This document shows, piece by piece, positions 3,969-31,496 of a stretch of 32,000 nucleotides of DNA. Source of the DNA: Candidatus Saccharimonadota bacterium (GTDB lineage Bacteria > Patescibacteriota > Saccharimonadia > Saccharimonadales > Saccharimonadaceae); assembly GCA_049296095.1 (NCBI GenBank), contig JBAQRV010000001.1, forward strand, positions 30,001 through 62,000, written 5' to 3'. The position numbers and the translations under genes are program-made. How positions within the stretch are numbered: position 1 is the first letter of the stretch; every line of letters begins with the position of its first letter. The notes beneath the pieces are model-generated. The model did not search any database. It had not been told where the DNA came from and saw nothing but the letters and a program-made list of their open reading frames with translations.

Positions 3969-4035
3969 AATGGCAGTCACCACACCGTGTGGGGCCTCGA
4001 GTAATCGAGTGAGCCCCTAGGAAGGGATGAAGTTA

Positions 4036-4200: not shown

Positions 4201-4224
4201 CTAGCTAAGCCCGCACCTGCGGAT

Positions 4225-4290
4225 GAAAAGACCCGACATACCAACCTGTCGATGAGTCATTCATCTACAGGCGTCGGGCTCTTTTCATGT
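4225..4290 (+). terminator. compound hairpin with flanking A-run and T-run (intrinsic terminator candidate)
   Basis: GAAAAGACCCGAC (4225-4237) pairs with GTCGGGCTCTTTTC (4273-4286). An inner stem joins CCTGT (4245-4249) and ACAGG (4267-4271). Confidence 0.45.
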
Positions 4291-4350
4291 TAGTGTACTT
4301 TCCACCGTCTTTAAGAAGTCAATTTGGCTTCTTTTTGTTACTATTAAGTT

Positions 4351-4758
4351 ATGAACATACGAAACTATGCGCCGTCGGATTACGGGCAGTTAAAGACTTT
4401 GTACCTCGATAGCTCCTTCTATGGTGGTCAATTTGACGAAGCTCGGGATTCTGAAGAACGATTAAGAAAGATTGGCCATGATTCAATCCTCGTAGCAGAA
4501 GATAACGGTATGATTTTTGGCACAGTTTCCCTCATTGATGATGGTAGGGTCGCTTGGCTGTTTCGTTTTGCTGTTAAAGACAATGATCTAAAGGTTGCTC
4601 GTGCGTTAAAGGAGAAGGCGATCGAGGTTCTTAAGTCAAGAGGTCATACACAGGTCCTCGTATACTCTCCTATAGATAACAAACAATTAGATCGTCGCTA
4701 TCTTGACCTAGGCTTTAATAAGGGTGGAGACTACACTGCTTATTGGCAGGAAGTGTAG
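4351..4758 (+). CDS. GNAT-family N-acetyltransferase
   Basis: 135 aa with typical GNAT layout: MNIRNYAPSDYGQLKTLY..., a beta-bulge region WLFRFAV, and ARALKEKAIEVLKSRG in the acetyl-CoA-binding helix position. Confidence 0.65.
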   Translation: MNIRNYAPSDYGQLKTLYLDSSFYGGQFDEARDSEERLRKIGHDSILVAEDNGMIFGTVSLIDDGRVAWLFRFAVKDNDLKVARALKEKAIEVLKSRGHTQVLVYSPIDNKQLDRRYLDLGFNKGGDYTAYWQEV

Positions 4759-9684: not shown

Positions 9685-9687
9685 GCC

Positions 9688-10866
9688 ATGGGCCTCATCT
9701 CACAAGCTAAAGATATCTATATACCTAAACTACGCTTCTCCGAGTTTTATGATAAGTGGGAGGTTAAATCACTCTTAAGCGTAGTATCTTTTAGAAATGG
9801 CAAGCCTTTCGAAACTTTCGTCGAAGAGAACGGTAAGTATAAACTGATTACAATAGACTCAGTAGATATAAACGGTAAATTAAAGACAAAGTTCAAAACA
9901 GTAAATCAAGCAGACGGTTCTTTAAGTAAGAACGATATCATTATCGTGCTTAGTGATATCGCTCACGGCTACCTATTGGGGCGCTCATGTTTAATACCTG
10001 AAAATGATACTTTCGTGCTTAACCAACGAATGGGAAGGTTGAGGCCTAAGCAGAAAGATTCAGCCGCTTTTATCAGTTTGTATATAAATAACCACCAATA
10101 CTTTTTTAGAAGTAGAGGCCAGGGAACCTCGCAGAGACATATATATGAACGCGATATTAATCAATTTGAAATTAAATTACCATCGACTATTGAACAACAA
10201 AAAATTGCTGCATTTTTAACGACCATAGAGGATAAGCTGACAGTAGATGAGAATCAGTTAGACCTATTAAGGAAGTACAAAAAGAGTGTAGTAAAAAAAA
10301 TCTTTAGGCAAGAAATTCAGTTTATGAACGATGCAAATCAACCTTACCCTAAATGGGCTGAAGTAAAGATCGGTGATATAACACAGAATTATGATAATAA
10401 ACGAAAGCCTATATCTTCAGAATTACGTACGGCGGGCGAGTTTCCTTATTACGGCGCAAATGGCGTAGTTGATTATGTAGAGGATTACATATTCAATGGT
10501 GAGTATGTATTAGTGGCGGAAGATGGAGTGGTCGATATTTCTAAGTATCCAGTCCATTTTGTAAGGGGAAAATTCTGGGTTAATAATCATGCTCATGTTC
10601 TGCAAGGCAAGGATGTCGATAATATATTCTTGTACTATGTTTTGCACAGCACCAGGTTTGTAAAGTATATTACAGGTTCAGCGCAGACCAAGTTAAATAA
10701 TCAAATATTAAGAAGTATTAAAGTTACCATACCGATTGATGAAGGTGAACAGCGCAAAATAGCTGATTTTTTGTCTACGATAGACGCCAAGATTCAAATC
10801 GAAGAAGCAAAGCTGAGGGAATCAAAAAAGTTTAGAGCGGCCCTCGTGCAAAGGATGTTTGTATGA
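9688..10866 (+). CDS. hsdS: type I restriction-modification system, specificity subunit S
   Basis: 392 aa. Two variable target-recognition halves are each followed by the conserved spacer helix (EQQKIAAFLTTIEDKL and EQRKIADFLSTIDAKI). Confidence 0.9.
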   Translation: MGLISQAKDIYIPKLRFSEFYDKWEVKSLLSVVSFRNGKPFETFVEENGKYKLITIDSVDINGKLKTKFKTVNQADGSLSKNDIIIVLSDIAHGYLLGRSCLIPENDTFVLNQRMGRLRPKQKDSAAFISLYINNHQYFFRSRGQGTSQRHIYERDINQFEIKLPSTIEQQKIAAFLTTIEDKLTVDENQLDLLRKYKKSVVKKIFRQEIQFMNDANQPYPKWAEVKIGDITQNYDNKRKPISSELRTAGEFPYYGANGVVDYVEDYIFNGEYVLVAEDGVVDISKYPVHFVRGKFWVNNHAHVLQGKDVDNIFLYYVLHSTRFVKYITGSAQTKLNNQILRSIKVTIPIDEGEQRKIADFLSTIDAKIQIEEAKLRESKKFRAALVQRMFV

Positions 10867-11363
10867 GCAATGTTCAGCACGTTCTCTTCTATTCTCAAAT
10901 CACATTTGCAATGAATGCTGCACGGATACATAAATCATTGGCAATGGATAGAGAATTCAATAGAACAGAGCGCGAATTAATCACATACTCACAGGGTGTG
11001 ATGATTATTAACGCTGCAAAAATATGGGATAGAACAGGATATAATATAGAGAAATTTATACGCCAATCGAACGCGAAGGACGACGAGAAGGGTAGGCTAT
11101 TAAAAGGAGCATTGAAGATAAAAACGGGCCATCGGGTAACGATCGATAAGGTGAAATTGTGGCGAAATAAACTTATTGCTCACCTCGATAAAGATATGAA
11201 TACTACGGAGCAATTTAACGAATTTGACGGAGATGTTTCTGATATACAAATGATGATACAGGATGTTGCCGACCTTGTATCAAGCGCGAGTTGGTATCCT
11301 GAGAAGAATAGACCAATGACATTTCTCGACTATGACCAGATAAAAAGTGAGTTAAAACTATGA
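10863..11363 (+). CDS. small HEPN-motif protein (AbiU2-like) embedded between hsdS and hsdR
   Basis: 166 aa, predicted all-helical. The Rx4-6H motif is R101-NKLIA-H107 (WRNKLIAHLD, codons 11163-11183). ATGA overlaps at both ends (10863-10866 and 11360-11363). Confidence 0.55.
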   Translation: MSNVQHVLFYSQITFAMNAARIHKSLAMDREFNRTERELITYSQGVMIINAAKIWDRTGYNIEKFIRQSNAKDDEKGRLLKGALKIKTGHRVTIDKVKLWRNKLIAHLDKDMNTTEQFNEFDGDVSDIQMMIQDVADLVSSASWYPEKNRPMTFLDYDQIKSELKL

Positions 11364-14218
11364 CCACCCAATCCGAACAGTCCCTTGAAAACGAACTTCT
11401 TACCCAACTCCAGGGCTTGAAATACGAGCGTATCATCATTTCGGACGAGGCGAGCCTGGTTGCCAATCTTCGTACTCAAATAGAAAAGCACAACAATATT
11501 ACACTTACCGATAAAGAATTCACAAAAATTCTCAACCATCTCAGCAAGGGTAATGTCTACGAACGTGCTAAGATCCTGCGTGATAAATTTCATCTCATTC
11601 GCGATGATGGAAAGACGCCGCTCTACATAGAATTCTTTAATTCTCGTGACTGGTGTCACAACGAATTTCAAGTTACCAATCAAGTAACTGTCGAAGGAAG
11701 CTACAAGAACCGCTACGATGTCACTATTCTCATCAATGGTTTACCTCTTGTACAAATAGAGTTGAAGCGCAACGGACTTGGTTTAAAAGAAGCGTTCAAC
11801 CAGACGAATCGTTACCAGCGCCATAGCTACGATGCAAGTTATGGTCTTTTCCAATATATTCAAATGTTTGTTATTAGTAACGGCTCTAATACCAAATACT
11901 ATGCCAATAATCGAAAGCAAGATTTTAAGTTTACTTCATTCTGGACGGACGTAGATAACAACAAGATTACAGAACTTCATGAGTTTACTGATGTTTTCCT
12001 CGATCGATGTCACGTTGCAAAAATGATCGCCAAATATACTGTGCTGACAGAAGCAAGGACATTAATGTTGCTTCGGCCATATCAATACTACGCAGTGGAG
12101 AAAATTGTAGATCGAGTAAAGAATAGCACCAAAGGTGGTTATATATGGCACACCACAGGAAGTGGGAAGACCCTTACCTCCTTTAAAGCTAGTCAGATCC
12201 TGGTTGACCTTCCCGAGATTTATAAAGTAGTCTTTGTCGTTGACCGAAATGACTTGGATACCCAGACCATACGTGAATTTAATGAATTCCGAAAAGACAG
12301 TGTCGATAGCACTGACAGTACGCGTAACCTAGTGAAGCAGTTCGGTGATCCGGATACGAAGCTTATTGTCACCACGATTCAAAAACTCAACAATGCAATC
12401 ACAAACGACCGACACGCTCTAAAAATGGATAAACTGCGTGACGAAAAGGTAGTATTTATCTTTGATGAATGTCATCGTAGCCAGTTCGGTGAGACACATA
12501 AAAAGATCACCGAATACTTCACTAATCATCAGCTATTCGGATTCACGGGGACGCCTATCTTTGCCGAGAATGCCAGTGGTAACGGCCTGGGTAAGCGCAC
12601 GACAGCGGACCTATTCGGAGAAAAGCTCCATAGCTATGTCATTACTGACGCAATTGGAGATGAGAATGTCTTGAAGTTTGCAGTGGAGTACGTAGGTAAA
12701 TATAAATACAAAGACGGGAGTGCGAATAATGTTGATATTGACGTCGAGGCAATAGACAAAAAAGAATTAATGGAATCACCGCAACGGCTTGAGAAGATAG
12801 TTGATTATATTTTGGATTATCACGCGGCCAAGACCTATAACTGTGATTACTCGGCCATCTTTGCAGTCAGTAACGTCGACACCCTTACTAAATATTACGA
12901 GATTTTTAAGGCCAAACAAGCAGGACTCGATCGACCACTCCGTATTGCAACTATCTTTAGCTATGCAGCAAACGAGGATGATAAAGACGCTAACGGTATG
13001 CTCGATGCTGATATCGATATAACGACAAGCGGTCCGATCAATCAACATTCTCGCGATAAGTTAGAGAGTTATATTGCGGACTATAATGCGCAATTCGGGA
13101 CAAACTACACAACGAAAGATAGTAAGAGTTTTTATAGCTACTATCGAGACATTGGGCAGAAGCTAAAGAATCGTGAGAAGACTGACTTACCAGAAGATCG
13201 AATAGACATCCTACTGGTGGTCAATATGTTCCTGACGGGATTTGATGCGAAAAAAGTAAATACGCTCTACGTTGACAAGAATTTGCGTTACCATGGGTTA
13301 TTGCAGGCTTACTCACGGACAAATCGAATTATTAATGAAACGAAATCCCAGGGTAATATTGTTGTATTCCGTAACTTAAAAGAAGCGACTGATGACGCCC
13401 TTGCGTTGTTTGCAGATAAGAATGCGAATGAGACGATCTTCATTGAGCCTTACGAGCACCACATTGTTGCCTTTAATGCTGCGCTCGCACATCTCCTCCA
13501 ACTGACTCCTTCTCCGGCCGATGTCGATAGATTGGTAGGGGAACAGGCAGAGCTTGATTTTGTGACTGCATTCCGTGAGTTACTGCGACTCAAGAATACA
13601 CTTATTACTTTCGCGGATTTCACCTTTGATCACACTGGCATATCAGAGCAAGTCTTCGAAAGCTTTAAGAGCAAGTATCTCGATATCTATGCCAAGGTTC
13701 GTCATGAGCATGAACCCGAGAAAGTCTCTATCTTAAATGATGTTGACTTTGAGCTAGAGCTTATTCGTCGTGACGACGTGAACGTCGATTATATCCTAAG
13801 GCTCTTAACGCAATTAGTCGGCGCGTCAGGCGAGGACAAGACTCGCTTAATCCGTAATATTTTCTCAACCATGTCCGGTGACCCTGTACTGCGAAGTAAA
13901 CGAGACTTAATTGAAAAGTTTATTAACGGGACAATTCCTAAGATCAGCGACAGAGAAGAGGTTGAGAGTGCATTCGAAAACTTTTGGTCAGTGGAGCGTG
14001 CCGACGCTTTAAAACGTATAAGTGATGAAGAGGGTGCGGTCAGTGAGAAATTAGAGAAGCTGGTAGAAGACTATATATTTACCAATCGAAAGCCACGACG
14101 GTCGGATCTTGTGAATGCGCTGGTCAAGAAGCCAGGCATTTTGCAAATAAATGGCATCCTCAAGCGACTTAATGCAAAATTTAGTGACTATCTAGAGACG
14201 TTCGTAGATGGTGCTTAG
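11360..14218 (+). CDS. hsdR: type I restriction enzyme, endonuclease/translocase subunit R (EcoR124-like, type IC by recollection)
   Basis: 952 aa. N-terminal PD-(D/E)xK core YDVTILINGLPLVQIELKR, Walker A TTGSGKT, DEAH-type FDECHRSQ and FVISNGSNTKYYANN. Confidence 0.92.
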   Translation: MTTQSEQSLENELLTQLQGLKYERIIISDEASLVANLRTQIEKHNNITLTDKEFTKILNHLSKGNVYERAKILRDKFHLIRDDGKTPLYIEFFNSRDWCHNEFQVTNQVTVEGSYKNRYDVTILINGLPLVQIELKRNGLGLKEAFNQTNRYQRHSYDASYGLFQYIQMFVISNGSNTKYYANNRKQDFKFTSFWTDVDNNKITELHEFTDVFLDRCHVAKMIAKYTVLTEARTLMLLRPYQYYAVEKIVDRVKNSTKGGYIWHTTGSGKTLTSFKASQILVDLPEIYKVVFVVDRNDLDTQTIREFNEFRKDSVDSTDSTRNLVKQFGDPDTKLIVTTIQKLNNAITNDRHALKMDKLRDEKVVFIFDECHRSQFGETHKKITEYFTNHQLFGFTGTPIFAENASGNGLGKRTTADLFGEKLHSYVITDAIGDENVLKFAVEYVGKYKYKDGSANNVDIDVEAIDKKELMESPQRLEKIVDYILDYHAAKTYNCDYSAIFAVSNVDTLTKYYEIFKAKQAGLDRPLRIATIFSYAANEDDKDANGMLDADIDITTSGPINQHSRDKLESYIADYNAQFGTNYTTKDSKSFYSYYRDIGQKLKNREKTDLPEDRIDILLVVNMFLTGFDAKKVNTLYVDKNLRYHGLLQAYSRTNRIINETKSQGNIVVFRNLKEATDDALALFADKNANETIFIEPYEHHIVAFNAALAHLLQLTPSPADVDRLVGEQAELDFVTAFRELLRLKNTLITFADFTFDHTGISEQVFESFKSKYLDIYAKVRHEHEPEKVSILNDVDFELELIRRDDVNVDYILRLLTQLVGASGEDKTRLIRNIFSTMSGDPVLRSKRDLIEKFINGTIPKISDREEVESAFENFWSVERADALKRISDEEGAVSEKLEKLVEDYIFTNRKPRRSDLVNALVKKPGILQINGILKRLNAKFSDYLETFVDGA

Positions 14219-15011: not shown

Positions 15012-15632
15012 ATGACGTACGATGTAGAGAACGATCCTTATATCGATAAGGATACTAAAATTCTTCGGAATATCTTTGGTCTCGCCGACCAGAAAGCATT
15101 AGATGAAGTTGAATTCTCTATAACCTCGACTGAAATTGCTATCCTTGAAGAATATATTATTGATGGTGGCTTTGATCTTGATCATTTGTGTAGGATTCAC
15201 AAACAAATATTTGGCCAGTTATATGATTGGGCGGGCGAAATTCGGACTGTTGATATGGCAAAGGATAAAACTCGTTTCGCTCACGCTGAGCATATCGTGG
15301 CCTATGCGAGCGACTTGTTTACACAACTCGAACAAGAGAAGTATCTCAAAGGATTAGTAGAGGGTGATTTTATTGAACGGTTCTCCCATTATTACTCTGA
15401 GGTAAATATTTTACATCCGTTTCGTGAAGGTAACGGTCGTACGCAGAGGGCATTTTTTACATTACTGGCTAGATATAATGGTTACCACGTAGCCTGGGAT
15501 CAAATGAACCAGAATGATAATATAGCCGCCAGTATTGCAGCATACAACGGTGACGAAGGCCCTTTGATTGAAATACTGTATCCATTACTAGAATGGGTCC
15601 ACGAAGAGTATTGGAATATACACCCGCATTAA
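15012..15632 (+). CDS. Fic-domain toxin (class I, FicT/VbhT-like AMP-transferase)
   Basis: 206 aa. Canonical Fic motif HPFREGNGRTQR, with the upstream FGQLYDWAGEIRTVDMAK region. Confidence 0.88.
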   Translation: MTYDVENDPYIDKDTKILRNIFGLADQKALDEVEFSITSTEIAILEEYIIDGGFDLDHLCRIHKQIFGQLYDWAGEIRTVDMAKDKTRFAHAEHIVAYASDLFTQLEQEKYLKGLVEGDFIERFSHYYSEVNILHPFREGNGRTQRAFFTLLARYNGYHVAWDQMNQNDNIAASIAAYNGDEGPLIEILYPLLEWVHEEYWNIHPH

Positions 15633-15682: not shown

Positions 15683-16663
15683 ATGAGACCTTTCATCGAA
15701 CGCAAAACCAACACCAATAACTTCACCTACTACAGAAAGGGCCGCAAGGTTACGGATGAGTCGACACTCAAGCGGATCGAGTCATTTGCGATTCCTCCTG
15801 CTTGGTCCGATGTTCAGATCGCGGTCAATCCACGCGCTAAGATCCAGGTCGAGGGGCGCGACGCTGCAGGAAAAAAGCAATATATTTACAGTCACCACCA
15901 CATTGCCCAGCAGCACGCCGCCAAGTTCGATCGTACCGTTCAGTTTGCTTTGAAGCTGCCGACCATGCGTCGTAGAGTTAAGAAAGATTTAAAGAATCGA
16001 AAGTATAATAAGGACAAGATCCTGGCCTGTACGGTCGCCTTACTCGACAGGACCTACCTACGAGTTGGCAATGAAAAGTATGCCAAAAAGAATGCTAGCT
16101 ATGGCTTGACAACACTTCGACGCAAGCACGTCTCAGTGAAAGATGACCGAGTCGTGTTTGATTTCATCGGCAAGAGCGGCAAGCACCAGCACACCGAAGT
16201 GAAGGATAAGGAGATCGCGCGTATCGTTAAGAAACTCGACGACATGCCTGGTTATGAAATCTTTCGTTACTATAATGAAAAGAACGAACTGGTCGATTTG
16301 AAGAGCGATGATGTCAATGAATACATCCGAACCATCATGGGGCCAGATTTTTCTGCCAAAGACTTCCGTACCTGGGGCGGGACGATGCTGGCGGCACTCG
16401 AGCTTTCCAGTACCGTTCGACCCGATGACGCGGCGACCCGTAAGCGCATGATGATCGATTGTGTCGAAACAGTTGCGCGTGAACTAGGCAATACACCTGC
16501 AGTTGCGCGCAGCTCTTATATCGACCCGTATATCTTTACTCAATATGAAAAATCTAATGACATTGCGAGGGTCTTTAGTCGCATCAAGAAGCTCCGAAAG
16601 ACGCAGTATCTTAGTAAGGATGAGCAGTGTGTGATTAAGTTGCTCAGTAAAAAACAGGCCTAG
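15683..16663 (+). CDS. DNA topoisomerase IB (poxvirus-like bacterial type)
   Basis: 326 aa. N-terminal FAIPPAWSDVQI, a catalytic region with AKDFRTWGGT, and the active-site Tyr motif ARSSYIDP. Confidence 0.8.
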   Translation: MRPFIERKTNTNNFTYYRKGRKVTDESTLKRIESFAIPPAWSDVQIAVNPRAKIQVEGRDAAGKKQYIYSHHHIAQQHAAKFDRTVQFALKLPTMRRRVKKDLKNRKYNKDKILACTVALLDRTYLRVGNEKYAKKNASYGLTTLRRKHVSVKDDRVVFDFIGKSGKHQHTEVKDKEIARIVKKLDDMPGYEIFRYYNEKNELVDLKSDDVNEYIRTIMGPDFSAKDFRTWGGTMLAALELSSTVRPDDAATRKRMMIDCVETVARELGNTPAVARSSYIDPYIFTQYEKSNDIARVFSRIKKLRKTQYLSKDEQCVIKLLSKKQA

Positions 16664-17808
16664 ACTGGCGCATTCGGTCCGTGGTGCGGAATGGGTTGAT
16701 TTAATAGATTAAACATATGACGTTCTTGGGCCATCATCTGTTGCAGATGGGGGCCGATCTCAGCAAAGGTTTGTCTATATTCCTCGGCACTTTCCTCGGG
16801 TTTGGTGTGAACAGCGTTCGGGCTATTGGCAATAATACAATTAAGCCCAGCGTTTAAAGCGTATCGGCAAAAATTATCGCCCGATGTTTTGTCATCAACC
16901 ATGGAGTCATATCCACCTTCGCCAGTCCCGATATAAGCAAGTGTGGGGTTTAGAAGGCTAGGGCTATATTTGTCAGTCATGTCCGAAATAAGATCTTCTA
17001 AATCAATATTCTCAATAGCTTGGATCTGGTCATAGAGTAACTTGGTGCTTGGGAACTTCTTTCGACCCAAATCTTCAAAGATCTTTGCCATTGTCTCGTT
17101 GAATTTTACAATGTCGATACCGCCATCATCATTTGTGTAGTTTGCTTGGCGGAGCATGGCCTCTCCGATGAATCGAGCAGGATCATAATAAGCAAGCAAT
17201 GGAACCTGACCTAATATTTCGAGATATGTTTGAACCATATCTTTAATTTCTTCGCGCAGATTCTCTGAGCCGTCTGGCGTCGAGATGCCCATAATAAGCG
17301 GTACTTCGATTGAGCTGGTTGCTCGAATCTCGTCATTAACCGCTACAGCGACCTCCCCACCAGCGCTGTAGCCAACGAGATTAATCTCTTGAACATCGTA
17401 TTTCTCTGTCATAGTAATGATTCGACTTGCGATCGCATCTATACTCAAAGGTGCATTCCCGTAATTAACGGACCAGAGCTGGCTGTCCTGAATATGCTCT
17501 TGGAAGCCCTCGCCAAAAACGTGAACTAGATTATTGGCATCATAGGTGCCGAAGCCATTAATAAAGATGGTGGCCTTGTTATTATTATCTGGATCGAGTG
17601 CTTCGCCGCGCTGATCAATATTAATGCGAGCATTCTCAGCTATCTCAATATTTTCATTAATGTTATGAACATTCCAGGTATGGAGTGGCATGATCAGTGA
17701 TGTGCCAACCATTACTTTGCTAATAATTCGATTAGCGACGAATTGCCATCGTTTCGGATGATTCGGTGCAGTATACTGCTCGTAGGAATGAGACAGCCGC
17801 TCGGTCAT
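16660..17808 (-). CDS. alpha/beta-hydrolase-fold protein (lipase/esterase-like), N-terminal TM segment
   Basis: 382 aa. The nucleophile elbow GYSAGG (GxSxG) sits in INLVGYSAGGEVAV. Hydrophobic N-terminal segment VMVGTSLIMPL. Confidence 0.45.
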   Translation of the reverse strand: MTERLSHSYEQYTAPNHPKRWQFVANRIISKVMVGTSLIMPLHTWNVHNINENIEIAENARINIDQRGEALDPDNNNKATIFINGFGTYDANNLVHVFGEGFQEHIQDSQLWSVNYGNAPLSIDAIASRIITMTEKYDVQEINLVGYSAGGEVAVAVNDEIRATSSIEVPLIMGISTPDGSENLREEIKDMVQTYLEILGQVPLLAYYDPARFIGEAMLRQANYTNDDGGIDIVKFNETMAKIFEDLGRKKFPSTKLLYDQIQAIENIDLEDLISDMTDKYSPSLLNPTLAYIGTGEGGYDSMVDDKTSGDNFCRYALNAGLNCIIANSPNAVHTKPEESAEEYRQTFAEIGPHLQQMMAQERHMFNLLNQPIPHHGPNAPV

Positions 17809-17834
17809 ACATTCTAGTATAACCTCTTGCTGTA

Positions 17835-19472
17835 CTATTTAGCGCCAATAGTTAAGACATTACCGCTGAGCTTATCTCTAAAGTAGCCATCGTGACTAAC
17901 ATAGATGACGGCGCCTGAATATTTGCCGATTGCCGTTTCTAACTCTTCGATACTTGGGAGGTCCAAGTGGTTGGTTGGCTCGTCGAGGATGAGCAGCTGC
18001 GGGTCGTTGGCGAGCATGGTAATCAATTGGAAGCGAGCTTTCTGCCCACCAGATAGCCGTTTGATCGGTACCTTGCCATCGCCCTCAGAGAAGAGGTAAT
18101 CACTCATAAGCGAGCGGATCTTTGTCGTACTAATCGGCAGCCCTCGGGAGAGATACATTTTTTCGATCGCTTCCTCGAGGGGAAGATCAAAGTAGGTAGG
18201 GGACACTTCTTGCTCGTAGACACCGAAGCGGACTTGCTTATCCAAAGTTAATTCACCACCGAATTGCGTGACACTATCATCACCGAGGATCTTTTTAATG
18301 AGGGTTGTTTTACCTGCACCGTTTCGTCCGCGGAATTCGATCGATTCGCCTTCACGCAGGTCGATGTTTACGCCCTCAAATAATGGTTTGTCATAGCCGA
18401 GTGAAAGATCACGGGCCGACAATAGAACATGCTTGCTGCGTGATTCATCAGTGCTGAGATTGATGCGAACATTCTTGGCCTTGAACTTGTCATATTGCGC
18501 CGCTGTTTTGTAGTTTAGGTTTGAAGCTGATTCTTTATCAATCCAGAAGGTCGGCCGCGAGCGTGTTTCGAGCTCCTTGAGTTCTTTACGAGATTCTTCT
18601 TCGAGGCGTTTGAATCGTTGGATGGTGCCACCGTGTCGAGACTTCTCTTTAAACCGCTGGTATTCAATCACCTTGGCTTTGAGATTCACGATTCGTTTTT
18701 CGATCATCTCGAACTCATTCATTTGTGAGCCGGTGCTAACGGCATTTTGCTTTAGGTACGCATCGTAGTTACCTTTAAAACTAGCCGAGCCCCCGTCTTT
18801 GATTTCAATGATGCGATCGACTTCGCGCAGCACGTCACGGTCGTGAGTAATGACAAGGACGGCTTCGCGGGCCTGTTTGAGCCAGTCGATAAACTGTTGC
18901 TTGGCAATGTAGTCCATGTGGTTGGTTGGCTCGTCGATGAGAGCTAGGTGGGCATCGGAGTGCATAATCTTGACGACCTCAACCAGTCGTTTTTGACCAC
19001 CAGACAGGGTTGAGAATTCGCGGTGAGCGATGCCGTTTAATTGGAAGTTATCCAGCTCGCGCTCAATCTGTTCCTCGATTTGGTAGAAACCTTTGTCATC
19101 GAAACGTCCGAGAGCTTCGCTGTAGGTGTGGATCTTTTTCATATCATCGCCCATCGTCAGGGGATAGGTTTCGATGATATGGCTGAGTTCGGCGTACTCG
19201 GGCAATCCTTGGAGGATATATTGTAGGACGGTTTTGTCGCCGACATCGTGGTATTCTTGTTGGGTTGCAACGATAACACCACCTGGTTTGTAGATGATGT
19301 CGCCGGTGAAGTCTTTGTCTTTTCCAGTCAGGATATCAAAGAGGGTAGATTTGCCAACACCATTACGACCGATGAGGCCAATCTTCTCGCCATCATTAAT
19401 AGTCAGCCTCACATTAGACATGAGGGATTTTGGTCCAAAGGACTTTTCGGTGATGGTGATATCGGCGATCAT
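17835..19472 (-). CDS. ABC-F family ATPase (two ABC cassettes, no TM domain)
   Basis: 545 aa. Walker A GRNGVGKST and GRNGAGKTT, signatures LSGGQKRL and LSGGQKAR, and a charged inter-domain linker. Confidence 0.9.
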   Translation of the reverse strand: MIADITITEKSFGPKSLMSNVRLTINDGEKIGLIGRNGVGKSTLFDILTGKDKDFTGDIIYKPGGVIVATQQEYHDVGDKTVLQYILQGLPEYAELSHIIETYPLTMGDDMKKIHTYSEALGRFDDKGFYQIEEQIERELDNFQLNGIAHREFSTLSGGQKRLVEVVKIMHSDAHLALIDEPTNHMDYIAKQQFIDWLKQAREAVLVITHDRDVLREVDRIIEIKDGGSASFKGNYDAYLKQNAVSTGSQMNEFEMIEKRIVNLKAKVIEYQRFKEKSRHGGTIQRFKRLEEESRKELKELETRSRPTFWIDKESASNLNYKTAAQYDKFKAKNVRINLSTDESRSKHVLLSARDLSLGYDKPLFEGVNIDLREGESIEFRGRNGAGKTTLIKKILGDDSVTQFGGELTLDKQVRFGVYEQEVSPTYFDLPLEEAIEKMYLSRGLPISTTKIRSLMSDYLFSEGDGKVPIKRLSGGQKARFQLITMLANDPQLLILDEPTNHLDLPSIEELETAIGKYSGAVIYVSHDGYFRDKLSGNVLTIGAK

Positions 19473-20493: not shown

Positions 20494-21771
20494 ATGGTGG
20501 ATATTCTCTCCTCGCTCCTCTCATTGATTGATCTGTTTGCTATTGCTGGCGGAGGTGGGTCCAGCAGCGGAGGTGGCGGAGGAGGTGGTTCTAGCGGTGG
20601 TGGAGGCAGCTCATTCTCTGGCGGTGGCTCGTCGGGGAGTGGTGATGGCTCATTTAGTATCCCAATTCTTCTGATAACTGTCCTTATATTTACGGTCATA
20701 TCGGTTATCATTGCACTTGGGGCTCGACAGGCTGCCAAAGCGATCCAAGCGCGCCGAGCCAGGATCCGCGCTGAACTTCTTGCTCTAGCTGCCAAAGATA
20801 AGGTTTGGGAGCCGGATGAAATGGTGACGCGGGCCCGTGAGACGTTCATGCAATACCAAAAAGATTGGTCGTCTTTTAATCTCGATTCGATGAAGACCTA
20901 TATGACGCCCGAATATTATCAGCACAATCTCCTCATGATGGGTGCCTTAAAGCTAGCTGCGCGCCAGAATGATGTCCAGAATCCAGTAGTGACGTTAGCG
21001 CATATTCACGAGTACAGCGATGATACGGATAATTCAAAAGATACCTACACGGTCCAGATGGCGGTACAGGTATTTGATGTTCTCAACGATACGCAGGATC
21101 AAAAGAAACTATTTAGCCAGTACTTAACCGCTTCTGAATTCTACAAATTTAAACGCGTTGGTTCAAAATGGCTGTTTGCAGGAATTGATCAGGCAACCGC
21201 AAATCCAGCCCTGCATAATCAGCAGTTACAAGACTTCGCGACAAAAAATAAATACTTCTATTCACTCGACTGGGGCTATTTACTATTGCCGCGTCGTGGT
21301 CAATTATTTAGCTCTGGTCGATTCGGTGTCTCAGACATTAATAATCATGTCATTGGTCTATCCAAGCAAACTATCGTGCAATTTTACACTTACGTACCAA
21401 CCCCGCAGCAACCAGCCGATAGCTATCTTATCGCGCAAGTAGCGGTTCCTAAAAAATATGGCAACATCGTCGTCAGACGGAAAAAAGGCTTCTGGGGTCG
21501 GGTCAAAGGACTGCGAAAGATTCAGACTGAATGGGGTGATTTCAATAGCATGTATGAGGTCTTCGCGAGCGATAGTGAGCTCGCGACAAGTTTTGAATTG
21601 CTACATCCGCGTTACATGGAGCAACTGCAGGCGCTTGATTTCGAGGTCAATATCGAAGTCGTTGATAACCTTATATATTTCTATACGGCCGAAAAAGGCA
21701 TTGTGAAGCCAGAGCACTACGAAGTTATGCAGAGCTTGCTCGATCGTGCTTTTAAAGAGATGAGGATGTAG
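20494..21771 (+). CDS. membrane protein with Gly/Ser-rich linker, Tim44-like domain and DUF3137-like C-terminus
   Basis: 425 aa. It has a GGGGSSSGGGGGGGSSGGGGS tract, one TM segment, a Tim44-like segment (WEPDEMVTRARETFMQYQKDWSSFNLDSMKTYMTPEYY) and C-terminal YEVFASDSELATSFELLHPRYMEQL. It is the usual kind of LemA neighbour. Confidence 0.5.
   Translation: MVDILSSLLSLIDLFAIAGGGGSSSGGGGGGGSSGGGGSSFSGGGSSGSGDGSFSIPILLITVLIFTVISVIIALGARQAAKAIQARRARIRAELLALAAKDKVWEPDEMVTRARETFMQYQKDWSSFNLDSMKTYMTPEYYQHNLLMMGALKLAARQNDVQNPVVTLAHIHEYSDDTDNSKDTYTVQMAVQVFDVLNDTQDQKKLFSQYLTASEFYKFKRVGSKWLFAGIDQATANPALHNQQLQDFATKNKYFYSLDWGYLLLPRRGQLFSSGRFGVSDINNHVIGLSKQTIVQFYTYVPTPQQPADSYLIAQVAVPKKYGNIVVRRKKGFWGRVKGLRKIQTEWGDFNSMYEVFASDSELATSFELLHPRYMEQLQALDFEVNIEVVDNLIYFYTAEKGIVKPEHYEVMQSLLDRAFKEMRM
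20548..20652 (+). repeat. low-complexity GGN/AGC coding tract (Gly/Ser-rich)
   Basis: Runs of ggc/gga/ggt/agc codons. They generate the spurious Pro-rich antisense ORF 20481-20849. Confidence 0.7.
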
Positions 21772-26127: not shown

Positions 26128-26436
26128 TTACCAGCTACGCTGACGGAATGATCCGCCTGCGTTGTCGCCGCCACGTGGACGGTCCTCTTTAGGTCGGGCT
26201 AGGCTAACGTTAATTGGACGTCCGTCTAGTTCCTTCCCATTGAGCTGATCAACTGCTTTTTGGTTGTTAGCTTCGTCGACAAATTCAACGAAACCAAAAC
26301 CCTTTGAACGACCGGTTTCGCGGTCAGACACAACACGTGCGCTGGCGACTTCGCCGATAGTTTCAAAGAAAGCCTTCAAGCTGTCATCGTTAGTTGCGTA
26401 AGCAAGGCTACCGATAAATAGATTTTGTGATGCCAT
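26128..26436 (-). CDS. RRM-type RNA-binding protein with Gly/Arg-rich tail
   Basis: 102 aa. RNP-2 is LFIGSLAY and RNP-1 is KGFGFVEF. Confidence 0.9.
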   Translation of the reverse strand: MASQNLFIGSLAYATNDDSLKAFFETIGEVASARVVSDRETGRSKGFGFVEFVDEANNQKAVDQLNGKELDGRPINVSLARPKEDRPRGGDNAGGSFRQRSW

Positions 26437-26605
26437 TATATAGATTTTCTCTTCTTCTTTTCTTTACTTGTTGTCAGATCGACCATGACGACAGTATTAC
26501 AGTGTTGAAGAGAGAGATTATCGTGGTGAGATAAGCGCTCGCCGTCCACTTTGGTACGCGTTGTGCTTCTGAACACGCTTAGTTAAGCATATCCGTGCAT
26601 ATAAT

Positions 26606-26785
26606 ACTAGTAGCGACCCCCGCAAACTACTTGTGCTTAAAGCAACTATGGTGCATACTGTTGCTATGCTGATGCGCATGGGGCGACCCCTGCGTGGCAA
26701 AACAAACATTACCAAACATGTGTGCGGCCCCGGGTGGGCGCGCAGCAGCACAAGAGCTCGTCCTTGATAGTAGGGGCGAGTTTTT
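26606..26785 (+). ncRNA. candidate structured small RNA (unassigned family)
   Basis: TATAAT at 26600-26605. Long-range 8-bp pairing CTTGTGCT (26630-26637) with AGCACAAG (26747-26754). Hairpins at 26641-26665, 26674-26695 and 26724-26741. An A/C-rich single-stranded stretch. Terminator CTCGTCC-ttgatagta-GGGGCGAG-TTTTT (26757-26785). Confidence 0.35.
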
Positions 26786-26799
26786 GATGCTATTTAAGC

Positions 26800-26829
26800 T
26801 TGCAAAAGTATATAGTTTCCTGCATAACT
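26800..26829 (+). promoter_or_regulatory. candidate promoter TTGCAA-N17-CATAAC(T), second copy
   Basis: GCTTGCAAAAGT (26798-26809) and CATAACT (26823-26829) are identical, with the same 13-nt gap, to 3937-3948 and 3962-3968. Confidence 0.5.
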
Positions 26830-26887
26830 GGATTATCACTTATTCGGTAGTACCAACAAAGGCTCTATGCCAAGAAGGGTGAAGTAC

Positions 26888-27160
26888 ATGACAAGACAAT
26901 CAAGGTCGATTGGTCCAAACAAGGCACGCTCGACCTACGTCGATGGACCGGTAGTCAGTGAGCTGTTCGATGCACCAACAGCGCAGGCGGTCCGCCCGAG
27001 CTCGCATCCCCAGTCCTTCGATCAGCTCATCACACCCGACATGGAAGTTGGGGGTATGTGCTTTGAAGACAGCAGCTCGGTGCTCACACCGTGGCGATCA
27101 GCTGAAGCGCCGAGGTTCTCGTCGCCCCGACACGCTCGGGATCCCAAGCGTATCGGCTAG
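26888..27160 (+). CDS. GC-rich small ORF candidate (90 aa), possible paralogue of the 4036-4200 ORF
   Basis: AGAAGGG followed by GTGAAGTACATG mirrors GGAAGGG followed by ATGAAGTTAATG at 4020-4038. High third-position G+C. The product is Ser/Pro/Arg-rich (MTRQSRSIGPNKARSTYVDGP...). Coding status is uncertain. Confidence 0.3.
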   Translation: MTRQSRSIGPNKARSTYVDGPVVSELFDAPTAQAVRPSSHPQSFDQLITPDMEVGGMCFEDSSSVLTPWRSAEAPRFSSPRHARDPKRIG

Positions 27161-27237
27161 CCCTCACTTGTGGGCGGAGTAGTTCAAGCCTTTGGCTCAG
27201 AACGCTCCGCCCCAGGTAGAGGGCTTTTATTATTTTT
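27159..27237 (+). terminator. long compound hairpin plus T-rich tail
   Basis: The outer stem AGCCCTC (27159-27165) pairs with GAGGGCT (27219-27225). It encloses GGGCGGAG (27172-27179) paired with CTCCGCCC (27205-27212), and the inner stems GTTC/GAAC and AGCC/GGCT. TTTATTATTTTT follows. Confidence 0.55.
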
Positions 27238-27254
27238 GTGGCATAATAAAGCTA

Positions 27255-28538
27255 ATGTTCAAATTTATCATCCGCAGCAAATTAGAAGGCTATGTTAAAA
27301 AGTATTTTAAAAAGCACCCCGAGGTGAAACTTGTTATTGTCACGGGGAGTGTTGGTAAGACGAGTACGAAAATCGCTATCGGTACGGTACTGGCCGAGCG
27401 CTTTCGCGTGCGCCTCCATGAGGGTAATCACAACTCAGAGATCAGTGCACCACTGGCAATGCTAGGGATTGATTTTCCAGAAAGCCTTCGTAGTTTTGGC
27501 TCGTGGTTGACTGCCTTCAAAGCCGCTAAACAGCGCATCAAAGATCCTGCAGACGTCGATGTGATTATCCAAGAGGTTGGGACGGACGGTATTGGTCAGG
27601 TTCCGCACTTTGGTAAATACGCCCATCCTGATGTGGCGGTTGTGACCGCGGTGTCACCCGAGCATATGGAATTCTTTAAAACGCTCGATGCCGTAGCCGC
27701 CGAAGAACTATCGGCCGCTAACTTTAGCAAAACGGCTCTTATCAATCGTGATGATATTGACGGAAAATACGCGGCAGACTTAACAAATCCAAACATTTCC
27801 ACCTATGGAACGACCGACGCAGCTGAATACCATTTTATTGAAGAGGATTTCTCAATCGAAGATGGTTTTAAGGGAAAGCTCGTTGCGAAGGAATGGGAAG
27901 AGCCGCTCGAAGTGACCCTCAAAGTTATGGGGGAGCACAGTATTCGCTCGGCCGTAGCTGCAGCCGCTGTCGGTGTAAAGATTGGCTTAACTTACGATGA
28001 GGTAAAACGAGGTCTAGGCAAGATTCGAGCGGTCAAGGGGCGCATGAACATGCTGCGAGGCTTTGAGAAGAGTATTATTATAGACGACACTTATAACTCG
28101 AGTCCACTTGCGGCTGTATCGGCCCTGCAGACACTGTACAGTTTGGACGCACCGGCTCGCATTGCGGTGCTCGGGACGATGAATGAGCTTGGTGCAACCT
28201 CGGCAGCTGAACATGAAGTATTAGGGAAACTATGTGATCCGAATCTTTTGACACACGTCGTGACGGTTGGTGAGGAGGCTGAAAAGTATCTTGCCCCTGC
28301 CGCTCGGGCAAATGGCTGCCATGTCGTGAGCTTTCGCTCGGCACTCGAGGCTGGTGCTTTTGTGCATAAATCTCTCGAGCCAGGCGCGGCGATCTTGTTT
28401 AAAGGTTCTCAGGGTAACGTTTACCTAGAAGAAGCGGTCAAGATGGTGCTCCACTCAACCGATGATGAATCACAATTGGTTCGACAATCAGCGCATTGGA
28501 TGAAGATTAAGCAAAAATTCTTTGATTCCCTCCAGTAG
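27255..28538 (+). CDS. murF: UDP-MurNAc-tripeptide--D-Ala-D-Ala ligase MurF, short N-terminus
   Basis: 427 aa from ATG 27255; the track's TTG start at 27192 lies inside the terminator. P-loop TGSVGKTSTK, GNHNSEISAPLAMLGI, GEHSIRSAVAAAAVG, DDTYNSSP, GTMNELG and FKGSQGN all parallel E. coli MurF. Confidence 0.8.
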   Translation: MFKFIIRSKLEGYVKKYFKKHPEVKLVIVTGSVGKTSTKIAIGTVLAERFRVRLHEGNHNSEISAPLAMLGIDFPESLRSFGSWLTAFKAAKQRIKDPADVDVIIQEVGTDGIGQVPHFGKYAHPDVAVVTAVSPEHMEFFKTLDAVAAEELSAANFSKTALINRDDIDGKYAADLTNPNISTYGTTDAAEYHFIEEDFSIEDGFKGKLVAKEWEEPLEVTLKVMGEHSIRSAVAAAAVGVKIGLTYDEVKRGLGKIRAVKGRMNMLRGFEKSIIIDDTYNSSPLAAVSALQTLYSLDAPARIAVLGTMNELGATSAAEHEVLGKLCDPNLLTHVVTVGEEAEKYLAPAARANGCHVVSFRSALEAGAFVHKSLEPGAAILFKGSQGNVYLEEAVKMVLHSTDDESQLVRQSAHWMKIKQKFFDSLQ

Positions 28539-28565: not shown

Positions 28566-31496
28566 ATGCAGCGATATAATCCGGCCGAAATTGAGCCGAA
28601 GTGGCAAAAAGTTTGGGAAGACCAAAAAGCCAATGAGGTAACGAATGATACGTCTAAAGTGAAGACGTATGTTTCGGGTATGTTCCCGTATCCTAGTGGC
28701 GCTGGTATGCATACTGGGCACGCTTTCTCTTGGGCGATCGTTGATGCGATTGCTCGTTTCCATCGCCAACACGGCGAAGCAGTCCTCAACCCAATTGGCT
28801 GGGACACGTTTGGATTACCAGCTGAAAACTATGCCATTAAAACTGGGACAGCACCTGCCAAAGTAACCGCCGAGAATATCGCCAACTTCAAGAACCAATT
28901 CAAACGGATGGGTGTCAGTATTGATTGGTCCCGTGAGATTAATACCAGCGATCCTGAATACTATCGTTGGACGCAGTGGGTATTCACGAAATTATTTGAG
29001 CGTGGCCTCGCCTACCAAAAGGAAAGCTTGCAATGGTGGTGCCCGGTAGATAAAACTGTCCTGGCTAACGAGCAAGTCGAAGGCGGTCATTGTTGGCGCT
29101 GTGGCAGTTTGGTTGAAAAGAAATCGATGAAGCAGTGGTTTTTCAAAATCACTGAATATGCCGATGCTTTGTTGGATGAAATTGAAGACCTCGATTGGCC
29201 GCAGAAGATCAAGACGGCTCAGACGAATTGGATTGGAAAGTCTGTGGGTGCTGAGATTGAATTTGCACTCTCGGAAACGGCTTCGCTCCCGGAATCTGAC
29301 GATTCTGGGGCTGCAGATGCTTCCTCAACTGTAAATTCAATCCCAGCTATCACAGTCTTCACCACACGACCGGATACAATCTTCGGGGCTACTTTCTTAG
29401 TATTAGCTCCCGAGCATCCACTAGTTGAGTCTTTAGGTGTGGGGGATTTTAAGGAATTCACCGAAAAGTATGTCAAAGAGGCAATTAAGAAATCTGAGAT
29501 CGAACGTACTAATGATACCAAGGAAAAGACAGGTGTCTTTACGGGTAGCTATGCAATTAACCCAGCGACGGGCGAGAAGGTACCGATTTGGGTAGCTGAC
29601 TATGTGCTCGGGGGTTATGGTACTGGCGCGATTATGGCCGTTCCTGGACACGATGAGCGGGACTTCGCCTTCGCCGAGAAGTATAGCTTGCCGATTGTGA
29701 CTGTTGTTGAACCAGTCTTTGGTGAGCCGCAAGGTGATGAAACGCATAAGGTTGGCGTCAATGTGATTGTGCGTGATCCTCGGACTGACAAAGTGATTGT
29801 TCTGGACTGGGGTCCACGCAAGGAGCGTTTTGGTGGCCGTATGTTGATTGGCGGTGGCGTTGATGGCGATGAAGACGTCGTCGAATGTGCGATTCGTGAA
29901 ATTGCCGAGGAAACTGGGTATACGGACGTGCGCTTGGTTTCGCGATCTGATGTTATTGGCCATGGCTATTTCTATTCAAACGTCAAAGAGAAGAACTATT
30001 CGATCGATGCTCATGGATTGTATTTTGAACTTGTCAGTGATGCTAAAGATGCGACCAATATGGACGACGGTGAAGTTGGCAAGTTCGAGGTGACGTGGCA
30101 GCCAACTAACCAGGTTGCGGCTCAGCTCGATGATGGCATTCACCGTTACTTCTTTGAAACGCTTGTCGAGAAAAAGATTTATCACGGCGAAGGACTGCTT
30201 GTGAATAGTGGCGAGTTTGACGGCATGCCAACCAGCGATGCGCGTGAAGAAATTGTTGCTTGGCTTGAACAGCAGAAACTTGGCCGCAGCAAGACTACCT
30301 ACAAGATGCGCGATTGGCTGATTAGCCGTCAGCGCTATTGGGGTGCGCCGATTCCGATTATTCATTGTCCAGAGCACGGTGCGGTGGCGGTACCTGAAGA
30401 TCAGCTTCCTGTCATCCTGCCTGAAATTGAAGACTACGCACCAAAAGGTGATGGTCTGTCGGCACTGGCTCGGGCAACAGATTGGGTCAATACGACTTGT
30501 CCTGAATGTGGTGGTCCTGCAAAGCGCGAAACCGACACGATGGACGGCTATGCATGTAGTAGCTGGTATTTACTTCGGTATACCGACCCGCATAATGCAG
30601 CGCGGGCTTGGGACCCTGAAGTCGCTAACTACTGGAATCCTGTCGACTTTTACGTTGGTGGTGACCACGCGGTGGCTCATTTGCTCTACGTTCGTTTCTG
30701 GACGCACGTTTTCCACGAGATGGGACTGGTGAACTTTAAAGAACCAGTCAAAAAGTTAATTTATCACGGCTATATTAACGCCGAAGATGGCTCAAAGATG
30801 AGTAAGAGCAAGGGTAATGTGGTGGATCCACTTGATGTGATCGACCAGGGCTATGGCGCTGATGCACTGAGAACTTATTTGCTCTTCATGGGCCCGATTG
30901 AACTCGATGCTAGCTGGGATTCTCATGGTATCGCTGGTGTCTACCGATTCTTGAACCGTATCTGGACACTCGCTCAGCAGTATCAATCTGCCGAGAAGAA
31001 TATTACCAAGAATGATGCCGCGATCCGCGTTGCCCAACACAAAACGATCAAGAAGGTGACTGATGATTTCCGTCGGCTGAGTTTTAACACGGCAATTTCT
31101 GGCCTGATGGAATATGTGAACGATCTCTACAAGTTTAAGATCGATGGATTTTCCGAAGAAGTCTGGACTGAAGCATTAAAGACCCTCGTCCAGTTAGTGG
31201 CGCCGTTCGCACCACACATGGCTGATGAGTTGTGGAGTCAATTTGGTGAGCAAGGCCTCGTCCAAAATGCCGCTTGGCCACAGTGGGATGATGCCCTGAC
31301 AACCGAGGATATGATCACGATTGCTGTCCAGGTGAATGGTAAATTGAGAGGCGAGATTTCAATTGCCAAGGATCTCGACGCTGAAGCAGTGAAATCACTT
31401 GCCCTGGCACATGAGAATGTCGCTAAGTTTGTTGGTGAACAAAAACCGACCAAGGTGATTTATGTTCCTGGTCGGTTGGTGAGCGTTGTACTGTAG
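28566..31496 (+). CDS. leuS: leucyl-tRNA synthetase with an inserted Nudix domain
   Basis: 976 aa. HIGH-type PYPSGAGMHTGHAF, KMSKS, and CP1 editing motifs TTRPDT and GTGAIMAVPGHDERD. RDWLISRQRYWGAPIP is present. A Nudix box lies at 29853-29921. Confidence 0.95.
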   Translation: MQRYNPAEIEPKWQKVWEDQKANEVTNDTSKVKTYVSGMFPYPSGAGMHTGHAFSWAIVDAIARFHRQHGEAVLNPIGWDTFGLPAENYAIKTGTAPAKVTAENIANFKNQFKRMGVSIDWSREINTSDPEYYRWTQWVFTKLFERGLAYQKESLQWWCPVDKTVLANEQVEGGHCWRCGSLVEKKSMKQWFFKITEYADALLDEIEDLDWPQKIKTAQTNWIGKSVGAEIEFALSETASLPESDDSGAADASSTVNSIPAITVFTTRPDTIFGATFLVLAPEHPLVESLGVGDFKEFTEKYVKEAIKKSEIERTNDTKEKTGVFTGSYAINPATGEKVPIWVADYVLGGYGTGAIMAVPGHDERDFAFAEKYSLPIVTVVEPVFGEPQGDETHKVGVNVIVRDPRTDKVIVLDWGPRKERFGGRMLIGGGVDGDEDVVECAIREIAEETGYTDVRLVSRSDVIGHGYFYSNVKEKNYSIDAHGLYFELVSDAKDATNMDDGEVGKFEVTWQPTNQVAAQLDDGIHRYFFETLVEKKIYHGEGLLVNSGEFDGMPTSDAREEIVAWLEQQKLGRSKTTYKMRDWLISRQRYWGAPIPIIHCPEHGAVAVPEDQLPVILPEIEDYAPKGDGLSALARATDWVNTTCPECGGPAKRETDTMDGYACSSWYLLRYTDPHNAARAWDPEVANYWNPVDFYVGGDHAVAHLLYVRFWTHVFHEMGLVNFKEPVKKLIYHGYINAEDGSKMSKSKGNVVDPLDVIDQGYGADALRTYLLFMGPIELDASWDSHGIAGVYRFLNRIWTLAQQYQSAEKNITKNDAAIRVAQHKTIKKVTDDFRRLSFNTAISGLMEYVNDLYKFKIDGFSEEVWTEALKTLVQLVAPFAPHMADELWSQFGEQGLVQNAAWPQWDDALTTEDMITIAVQVNGKLRGEISIAKDLDAEAVKSLALAHENVAKFVGEQKPTKVIYVPGRLVSVVL

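Follow-up and report, generated by a model that had tools for sequence, protein, structure and literature searches.

A 32,000-nt stretch of contig JBAQRV010000001.1 from a Candidatus Saccharimonadota bacterium (assembly GCA_049296095.1, positions 30,001 to 62,000 of the forward strand), referred to here as the window, contains two short loci, W1 (locus 1, 3937-4290) and W2 (locus 2, 26798-27237), in which a small GC-rich open reading frame (ORF) lies between a predicted promoter and a long predicted terminator hairpin. An Ldh_2-family gene at 2847-3863 precedes W1 and a GNAT gene at 4351-4758 follows it; W2 is flanked by a conserved non-coding block adjoining the gene of an RRM protein (26128-26436, minus strand) and by a Mur ligase gene (27255-28538). 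An earlier note on this DNA had described the two loci as copies of one cassette that share promoter, ribosome-binding site and terminator but have diverged interiors. The parts of both loci are as follows.

3937-3968, plus strand: W1 promoter module from motif scans, GC-TTGCAA (3939-3944)-N17-CATAAC (3962-3967)-T
3975-4019, plus strand: W1 leader, opening with CAGTCACCACAC, a 12-mer also found in the third cassette C0 (see below), followed by a GC-rich hairpin
4020-4038, plus strand: W1 translation-initiation module from a motif scan, GGAAGGGATGAAGTTA-ATG
4036-4200, plus strand: W1 cargo ORF of 54 aa (57 aa from ATG 4027), plausibly coding, called as a gene in NCBI assemblies
4211-4288, plus strand: W1 terminator module, a short hairpin (4211-4222) and a 66-nt compound hairpin (4223-4288) with a U-run in its 3' arm
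26798-26829, plus strand: W2 promoter module from motif scans, GC-TTGCAA (-35, 26800-26805)-N17-CATAAC (-10, 26823-26828)-T
26836-26872, plus strand: W2 leader, with a putative transcription start near 26836
26873-26890, plus strand: W2 translation-initiation module, AGAAGGGTGAAGTAC-ATG, comprising the Shine-Dalgarno sequence and the start codon
26888-27160, plus strand: W2 cargo ORF of 90 aa, 59% GC, rich in Ser, Pro, Arg and Ala, doubtful as a coding sequence
27159-27237, plus strand: W2 terminator module, a 67-nt compound hairpin (27159-27225) and a T-run (27226-27237)

Boundary signals and interiors of the two loci

Exact copies of the string GCTTGCAAAAGT occur in the window only at 3937-3948 and 26798-26809, and the spaced pair TTGCAA-N17-CATAAC occurs exactly twice, at 3939-3967 and 26800-26828, compared to 0.02 expected from shuffles. 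The relaxed motif TTGCAA-N16-18-YATAAY was confined to cassette heads in about 635 kb of Saccharibacteria sequence. Similarly, GAAGGG-N0-1-TGAAGTNNATG is matched in the window only by GAAGGGATGAAGTTAATG (4021-4038) and GAAGGGTGAAGTACATG (26874-26890), with 0 matches expected, and ATG 4036 and ATG 26888 are the likely starts. Identity between W1 and W2 reaches past the functional hexamers (GC..AAAGT, TGAAGT). The promoter string and the ribosome-binding site with its start context, which the earlier note had claimed to be common to both loci, are therefore borne out, and its ORF lengths of 54 and 90 aa are right for the ATG starts. Its description of the loci as GC-rich also holds, as both are the GC maxima of the window: the 200-nt segments of highest GC in the 32 kb lie at 26901-27220 (0.59-0.64) and 3981-4280 (0.57-0.58), compared to 0.45 overall.

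At the 3' end, agreement with that description is partial. The sequence GCTAGC overlaps the stop codon at both loci (4200 and 27156), and a very long hairpin followed by a T-run is present at both, but the two hairpins cannot be aligned with each other. The terminator of W1 folds at -39.3 kcal/mol (z = -6.3) and that of W2 at -47.6 kcal/mol (z = -6.8); the W2 stop codon (TAG, 27158-27160) lies at the base of the terminator stem, and a second, ordinary terminator lies downstream of the W1 module at 4313-4333. In the predicted fold of W1 (3972-4070, z = -2.9; leader plus ORF, z = -3.45), both the Shine-Dalgarno sequence and the start codon are enclosed by a helix, GGCAGU/ACUGCC, that pairs 3972-3977 with 4059-4064.

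Between the boundaries, the earlier note had listed short strings shared in the same order. These strings are present where it placed them, but they do not establish similarity: when ORF bodies, leaders and 3' ends of W1 and W2 were aligned locally or globally against dinucleotide-shuffled controls, the interiors did no better than the shuffles, which reached the observed scores in 121/500, 168/500, 294/500 and 101/500 cases, and BLASTP found no similarity between the two ORFs. The loci have 15 7-mers in common (6.2 +/- 3.3 expected, z = 2.6), and their colinear chain of five shared 7-mers was reached by 6/200 shuffles; both results are marginal. The longest shared word, CAAGGTCGAT, is read in different frames in the two ORFs.

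A third cassette and the slot upstream of the Mur ligase gene

Coverage of the source genome comprised the window and 10 kb on each side (L110 and L113, about 52 kb in total). This region contains a third cassette, C0, which immediately follows tRNA-Val and the terminator of that tRNA, some 8.8 kb upstream of the window. The promoter of C0 (GCTTGCAAAA..CATAAA) and the beginning of its leader (CAGTCACCACAC) match W1, the 5' module of C0 aligning to 3931-3986 with an nhmmer E-value of 0.005 in 665 kb, and its initiation module (GAGAAGGTGAAGTACATGA) matches that of W2, which is nearly identical to it and to that of a related genome, L021. The C0 terminator is a hybrid, with a W1-like outer stem (AAGCCCGC..CGGGCUUUU) and a W2-like inner stem (GGGCGGAGU.GUUC..CUCCGCCCC); the outer motif AAGCCCGC..CGGGCU(C/U)UUU is common to W1 and C0, and the inner stem GGGCGGAGU..CUCCGCCCC to W2 and C0. 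The cargo of C0 is 162 aa long, unrelated to the other cargo, and has a clear coding signature (GC at codon positions 1/2/3 of.61/.34/.79). C0, W1 and W2 thus have promoter and terminator modules in common in a mosaic fashion, with non-homologous cargo. In composite form, the 5' module reads GCTTGCAAAA..CATAAC..GAAGG(G)TGAAGTACATG and the 3' module CTAGC..GCCCGC/GGGCGGAG hairpin..GGGCTTTT; nhmmer searches for the 3' modules returned no further copies.

Examination of 80 loci around Mur ligase homologues revealed a cassette at the position of W2, immediately ahead of the Mur ligase gene and on its strand, in each of the four close relatives for which the upstream sequence was long enough (L021 to L024), whose Mur ligases are 90% (L021) and 75-78% (L022, L023 and L024) identical to that of the W2 genome. 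No cassette lies upstream of the Mur ligase gene in relatives at 73% Mur ligase identity or less. In distant relatives, the conserved RNA that lies upstream (see below) often comes within 16-40 nt of the Mur ligase gene, and elsewhere the gap holds tRNA, pilin-like or other genes. These cassette-free and otherwise filled gaps indicate that the Mur ligase site is a variable slot in which the cassette was acquired in one sub-lineage. The surroundings of W1 gave no such series: in 16 related genomes the Ldh_2 neighbourhood is not conserved and the element is absent, and strain-level contigs of the same species are all identical over W1, with no polymorphic swap seen.

Among the loci compared, W2 aligns only to L021 and only at its ends, over 101 nt at the 5' end (82% identical) and 96 nt at the 3' end (80%), while the bodies, of 273 and 573 nt, cannot be aligned. 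Third codon positions of the adjacent genes are 49% identical between these two genomes, which argues that the end modules are under purifying selection. The breakpoints of the similarity are the ATG and a position about 6 nt ahead of the W2 stop codon; the two genomes are close to saturation at synonymous sites. The conserved 5' end includes the first ~25 nt of the W2 leader (AUCACUUAUUCGGUAGUACCAA), for which no special fold is predicted (z = 0.06), and in the terminator, 80% identical, changes on both arms keep the outer and innermost stems paired. The cassettes of L022 to L024 have the same layout, with TTGC(A/G)A-N17-(C/T)ATAAC, a Shine-Dalgarno sequence and ATG, a GC-rich ORF and a long hairpin. 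Across the family, the -35 and -10 elements at 17-nt spacing are kept in 7/7 aligned cassettes, as are the Shine-Dalgarno sequence and ATG, the former being purine-rich and 5-9 nt ahead of the ATG in every member. The proposal of a common promoter, ribosome-binding site and terminator around a diverged interior therefore stands, strengthened by C0 and by the same-position copies in four related genomes: W1 and W2 do belong to a small family of self-contained mini-genes that is restricted to one lineage.

The W1 stop region, TAGCTAGCTAA (4198-4208), contains stops in all three forward frames within 11 nt, directly before the terminator module, and strings related to CTAGC occupy the equivalent place in W2, C0 and L021. 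Four more small orphan genes lie in L113 about 3.4-7.9 kb past the 3' end of the window, at 16438-16629, 17444-17833 and 18047-18295 (all minus strand) and 20602-20952 (plus strand) of L113, coding for 63, 129, 82 and 116 aa, respectively. Their GC at third codon positions (GC3) is elevated (.62-.70), all four have a near-consensus TTGAC-N17/18-TAnnnT promoter to themselves, and Pfam and PHROGs gave no match for any of them. Beyond the GCTTGCAAAA subfamily, the source genome seems to contain many mini-genes of atypical composition that are expressed independently.

The block upstream of W2 (26437-26797) is widely conserved among Mur ligase loci and contains two separable elements. One is a candidate unannotated small RNA (window 26630-26790, plus strand) of about 120 nt, with a promoter TTGTGC-N17-CATACT (26634-26662) and a start near GCUGAUGCGCA; its 3' strand GCCCCGGGUGGGCGCGCAGCAGC is invariant, its linker AAAACAAACA is A/C-rich, and an intrinsic terminator lies at 26756-26790. 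It has 41 distinct homologues in Saccharibacteria loci, and covariation backs its structure, with 94% of cells paired and 12 pairs changed on both sides (0/500 shuffles match). No Rfam family matched it in the window or in 20 related loci; signal recognition particle RNA, 6S RNA, RNase P RNA and known riboswitches were considered by Rfam search and inspection, and none fits. The usual distance from it to the downstream Mur ligase gene is 16-40 nt, and in some loci tRNA-Ala, pilin genes or a cassette intervene; it could be a new small RNA or a riboswitch-like leader. The other element is a non-coding block of about 170 nt (26441-26612) upstream of the minus-strand gene for the RRM-domain RNA-binding protein (26128-26436), conserved at the nucleotide level in many Saccharibacteria and located apart from the small RNA in L059, L065 and L069; it may act as a 5' leader in autoregulation or in a response to stress. 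On the other side of the cassettes, the Mur ligase and GNAT genes appear leaderless or nearly so from their start regions (27239-27257 and 4336-4353, respectively). The extended -10 element of the Mur ligase gene (TGGCATAAT, 27239-27247) ends 7 nt before its ATG, with the upstream terminator occupying the -35 position, and the same layout is found in L022, in L023 and in L062, which has no cassette.

Cargo and competing explanations

The cargo ORFs of the family code for very different products. The 54-aa W1 product is strongly basic (isoelectric point 11.9, C-terminal RARRKRRR; grand average of hydropathy (GRAVY) -0.92, maximum 19-residue hydropathy 0.35), and AlphaFold2 run on the single sequence, without an alignment, predicted a beta-hairpin plus a basic helix with a predicted local distance difference test score (pLDDT) of 83; Foldseek with this model returned no match below E = 1. 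It is probably a small basic peptide that binds nucleic acid or the ribosome. The W2 product (GRAVY -0.66, maximum 19-residue hydropathy 0.44) is possibly disordered or non-functional, and its ORF has only weak in-frame similarity (E = 0.05) to the ORF at the same position in L022, which codes for a basic protein of 66 aa. L021 codes for an acidic protein of 190 aa with a textbook coding signature (GC1/2/3 of.66/.38/.79) and with itself as the only protein-database match, and L023 and L024 code for 82-aa proteins with two transmembrane helices that are 33% identical to each other. A search of 5.8 billion clustered proteins gave no homologue of W1 or W2, W2 was also compared exhaustively with 1.84 billion cluster representatives, again with no true homologue, and searches with the W1, W2 and L021 cargo returned only the self-match or one spurious low-complexity match; Pfam and PHROGs gave no significant match for any cargo ORF. 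The suggestion of a family of small basic proteins is accordingly not supported, since the cargo, variously basic, disordered, acidic helical or two-helix membrane, is mutually unrelated and without homologues.

By composition, the cargo is foreign. GC3 is.79 in the cargo ORFs of C0 and L021, compared to.35-.60 in 24 resident genes, which supports the idea, already raised in the earlier note, that cargo was acquired horizontally. Codon optimisation was rejected as the cause, as ribosomal protein S16 and the RRM protein have GC3 values of only.38 and.43. Capped scans of the phage, plasmid and IMG/VR collections gave no matches, and the few motif hits in viral contigs were chance occurrences inside coding sequence.

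We consider it probable that W1 and W2 are autonomous cassettes of a Saccharibacteria chromosome, similar to morons, from which small accessory ORFs are expressed. Each would be driven by a near-consensus sigma-70-type promoter (TTGCAA, 17 nt, CATAAC), followed by a leader of 40-60 nt; a strong Shine-Dalgarno sequence, located 5-9 nt ahead of the ATG, would start translation of a GC-rich ORF without relatives; and a compound hairpin of about 25-33 bp would presumably stop transcription, stabilise the 3' end and insulate the next gene, whose own predicted extended -10 promoter abuts the T-run of the cassette. Selection keeps the promoter, initiation and terminator modules, which are shared mosaically among cassettes of one genome, while the cargo between the ATG and the stop region is replaced or diverges past recognition. 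Several observations weigh against this interpretation. At W2, GC at the three codon positions of the ORF is flat (.58/.56/.63) with no codon-position signal, the gene calls of the source assembly do not include the ORF, and AlphaFold2 returned an all-coil model, predicted to be fully disordered, with a pLDDT of 58; W2 may be a decaying or non-coding member. In addition, copies in the source genome number three within the region covered, and proteins, phages, plasmids and viral contigs yielded no cargo donor, so that the argument for foreign origin is one of composition. Finally, selection on expression could by itself explain the conservation of the modules, with no role for recombination.

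That last point bears directly on a more elaborate explanation, integrase-free gene capture, in which the 5' and 3' modules would act both as expression signals and as portable homology arms in a naturally competent Saccharibacterium, and unrelated high-GC ORFs, possibly derived from the host or from host phages, would be swapped by transformation and homologous recombination into slots beside tRNA or small-RNA genes. The modules are mosaic among C0, W1 and W2, the similarity between W2 and L021 ends abruptly at the ATG and again a little ahead of the terminator, cargo GC3 is foreign, cassettes lie directly after tRNA-Val, tRNA-Ala or the conserved small RNA, and shuffling mediated by PeSL motifs is a documented precedent (PMC4122927). 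The mosaicism and the sharp W2/L021 breakpoints suggest that the modules might serve as recombination arms. We nonetheless regard capture as unlikely, given that three copies were seen in the genome, no donors were found and strain-level contigs are identical, with no polymorphic swaps observed; moreover, with near-saturated synonymous sites, replacement and extreme divergence are hard to separate except in the comparison of W2 with L021, and conservation of the modules is also expected from selection on expression. The loci could instead be genes for structured non-coding RNAs whose ORFs are incidental to the scarcity of stops in GC-rich DNA, as the earlier note had entertained. Whole-transcript folds do beat shuffles (z = -4.7 and -5.0), the opposite strand of this GC-rich DNA also gives long ORFs, and W2 has neither codon periodicity nor a homologue and is predicted to be coil. 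When broken down by part, however, the fold signal comes mostly from the 3' compound hairpins (z = -6 to -8, with all family terminator hairpins between -3 and -9) and the W1 leader, whereas the ORF bodies reach only -1.5 to -1.6, compared to 0.05 +/- 0.4 for ordinary genes. Rfam identified only tRNA in the window, and only tRNAs across the window, both loci and 20 related loci; lowering stringency to E-values up to 10 at both loci added only noise (mir-485, bxd_5, snoRNAs). Interiors are not conserved between species, the Shine-Dalgarno sequence and correctly spaced ATG are kept in 7/7 cassettes, sister cassettes hold clearly coding bodies, and the body of L023 and L024 keeps its protein architecture. 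A structured-RNA identity is therefore quite improbable, the strong fold signal being that of terminators.

The position of W2 invites a further explanation, that the small ORF and terminator form a cis-acting, translation-coupled attenuator of the downstream gene (Mur ligase for W2, GNAT for W1). In five genomes the cassette immediately precedes the Mur ligase gene and has the same orientation, and in W2, L023 and L024 the stop codon lies in the base of the terminator stem, which a terminating ribosome could open. Yet the ORFs are mutually unrelated and, with a length of 54-190 aa, do not resemble leader peptides, the stop codon is separated from the hairpin by anything between 0 and 32 nt, each downstream gene has a predicted extended -10 promoter of its own that lies 7 nt ahead of the start codon, most Saccharibacteria lack a cassette at the Mur ligase gene, and C0 and W1 precede unrelated genes, all of which makes attenuation very unlikely. 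We give least credence to the explanation that the resemblance of W1 and W2 is chance or generic, the two being ordinary genes with near-consensus promoters and ribosome-binding sites; it is already disfavoured. The adjacent conserved small RNA does have a promoter of similar type (TTGTGC-N17-CATACT), which makes TTGnnn-17-CATAAY a local consensus, and the interiors of W1 and W2 cannot be aligned. Against this, the W1/W2 identity exceeds the functional hexamers, the composite motifs are expected 0-0.02 times, the third copy, C0, is significantly similar, and in 635 kb the motif occurs nowhere but at cassette heads.

Other genes, known systems and significance

Elsewhere in the window, the leucyl-tRNA synthetase gene (28566-31496, plus strand) codes for a protein whose editing (CP1) domain is truncated, matching profile positions 2-150 of 185, and is immediately followed by an inserted NUDIX hydrolase domain (residues 394-531, E = 2e-13). 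At 8128-14218 (plus strand), a type I restriction-modification operon consists of HsdM (8128-9684), HsdS (9688-10866) and an HsdR-like gene (11360-14218), with a HEPN AbiU2-family gene (10863-11363) wedged between the S and R subunit genes. Other genes code for a heliorhodopsin (6628-7392), a Fic/DOC-family protein (15012-15632) and a type IB (eukaryotic-like) DNA topoisomerase (15683-16663).

The phage moron of Hendrix and Juhala is an independent transcription unit in which a single small gene has a promoter and a factor-independent terminator to itself, located between unrelated genes and deviating in composition. In function and layout, the cassettes are nearest to morons, as each has its own predicted promoter and predicted hairpin/T-run terminator around a single gene and departs in base composition from its neighbours. 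Unlike morons, they are not in a prophage, their neighbours are housekeeping genes (Ldh_2, DNA ligase, Mur ligase, leucyl-tRNA synthetase), and the units share homologous promoter, ribosome-binding-site and terminator modules. They are also close to the PeSLs of T4-like phages, in which small, phylogenetically variable ORFs of hyperplastic regions lie between short conserved motifs, a terminator stem-loop and a promoter, that mediate modular ORF shuffling (PMC4122927). Both have unrelated ORFs between homologous motifs at several sites of one genome, but the cassettes lie in a cellular genome of the Candidate Phyla Radiation (CPR), have no sequence relationship to PeSLs and include the ribosome-binding site and start codon in the conserved module, and recombination at their modules is conjectural. 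No phage genes or families were found within about 52 kb and no matches in phage or viral collections; by genomic context, the cassettes are therefore neither morons nor PeSLs. A study of the Staphylococcus aureus lpl tandem paralogue clusters describes conserved '3' end - intergenic - 5' end' evolutionary units (PMC2568036). Gene ends and expression signals are conserved there too, around a variable ORF centre, and the evolutionary unit is not the ORF, but the Saccharibacteria cassettes are dispersed rather than tandem and their bodies are unrelated rather than divergent paralogues.

Integron gene cassettes are likewise compact single-ORF units with a long imperfect 3' palindrome and variable, often ORFan cargo. 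In contrast, each Saccharibacteria unit has its own predicted promoter, the units are dispersed with no array, and their hairpins end in T-runs; integron identity was rejected because the 3' modules of W1, W2 and C0 contain no RYYYAAC or GTTRRRY core sites (R''/R'), and no recombinase Pfam family, intI included, was recorded for any called gene in L110 and L113. A miniature inverted-repeat transposable element or repetitive extragenic palindromic repeat was rejected as well, there being no flanking direct repeats, no further copies of the 3' module and no alignable hairpins between W1 and W2. Mobility of the loci in the transposon or integron sense is not supported: terminal repeats, target duplications and attC core sites were looked for and not found, nor did the roughly 52 kb covered contain a recombinase gene. 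Type I toxin-antitoxin modules do not fit the non-hydrophobic products of W1 and W2 (GRAVY -0.92 and -0.66), membrane-like cargo being restricted to L023 and L024, and simple scans gave no convincing antisense promoter at the loci. A leader-peptide reading fails because the downstream genes have their own predicted promoters.

The genomes of CPR bacteria (Patescibacteria) are tiny and, to our knowledge, how these organisms gain and express new genes, presumably for dealing with hosts and phages, is largely unknown. If the modules are mere expression consensus, the finding shrinks to ordinary lineage-specific small genes. The family offers candidate strong promoter, ribosome-binding-site and terminator parts for the emerging genetic tools of Saccharibacteria (PMC10633639), and it flags small orphan ORFs, one of them missed by current annotation, for proteomic testing. 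A capture system, if true, would be a functional parallel to integrons or phage PeSL shuffling in an ultrasmall episymbiont. Mosaic-module cassettes with interchangeable orphan cargo would provide a concrete handle on the turnover of accessory genes in the CPR.

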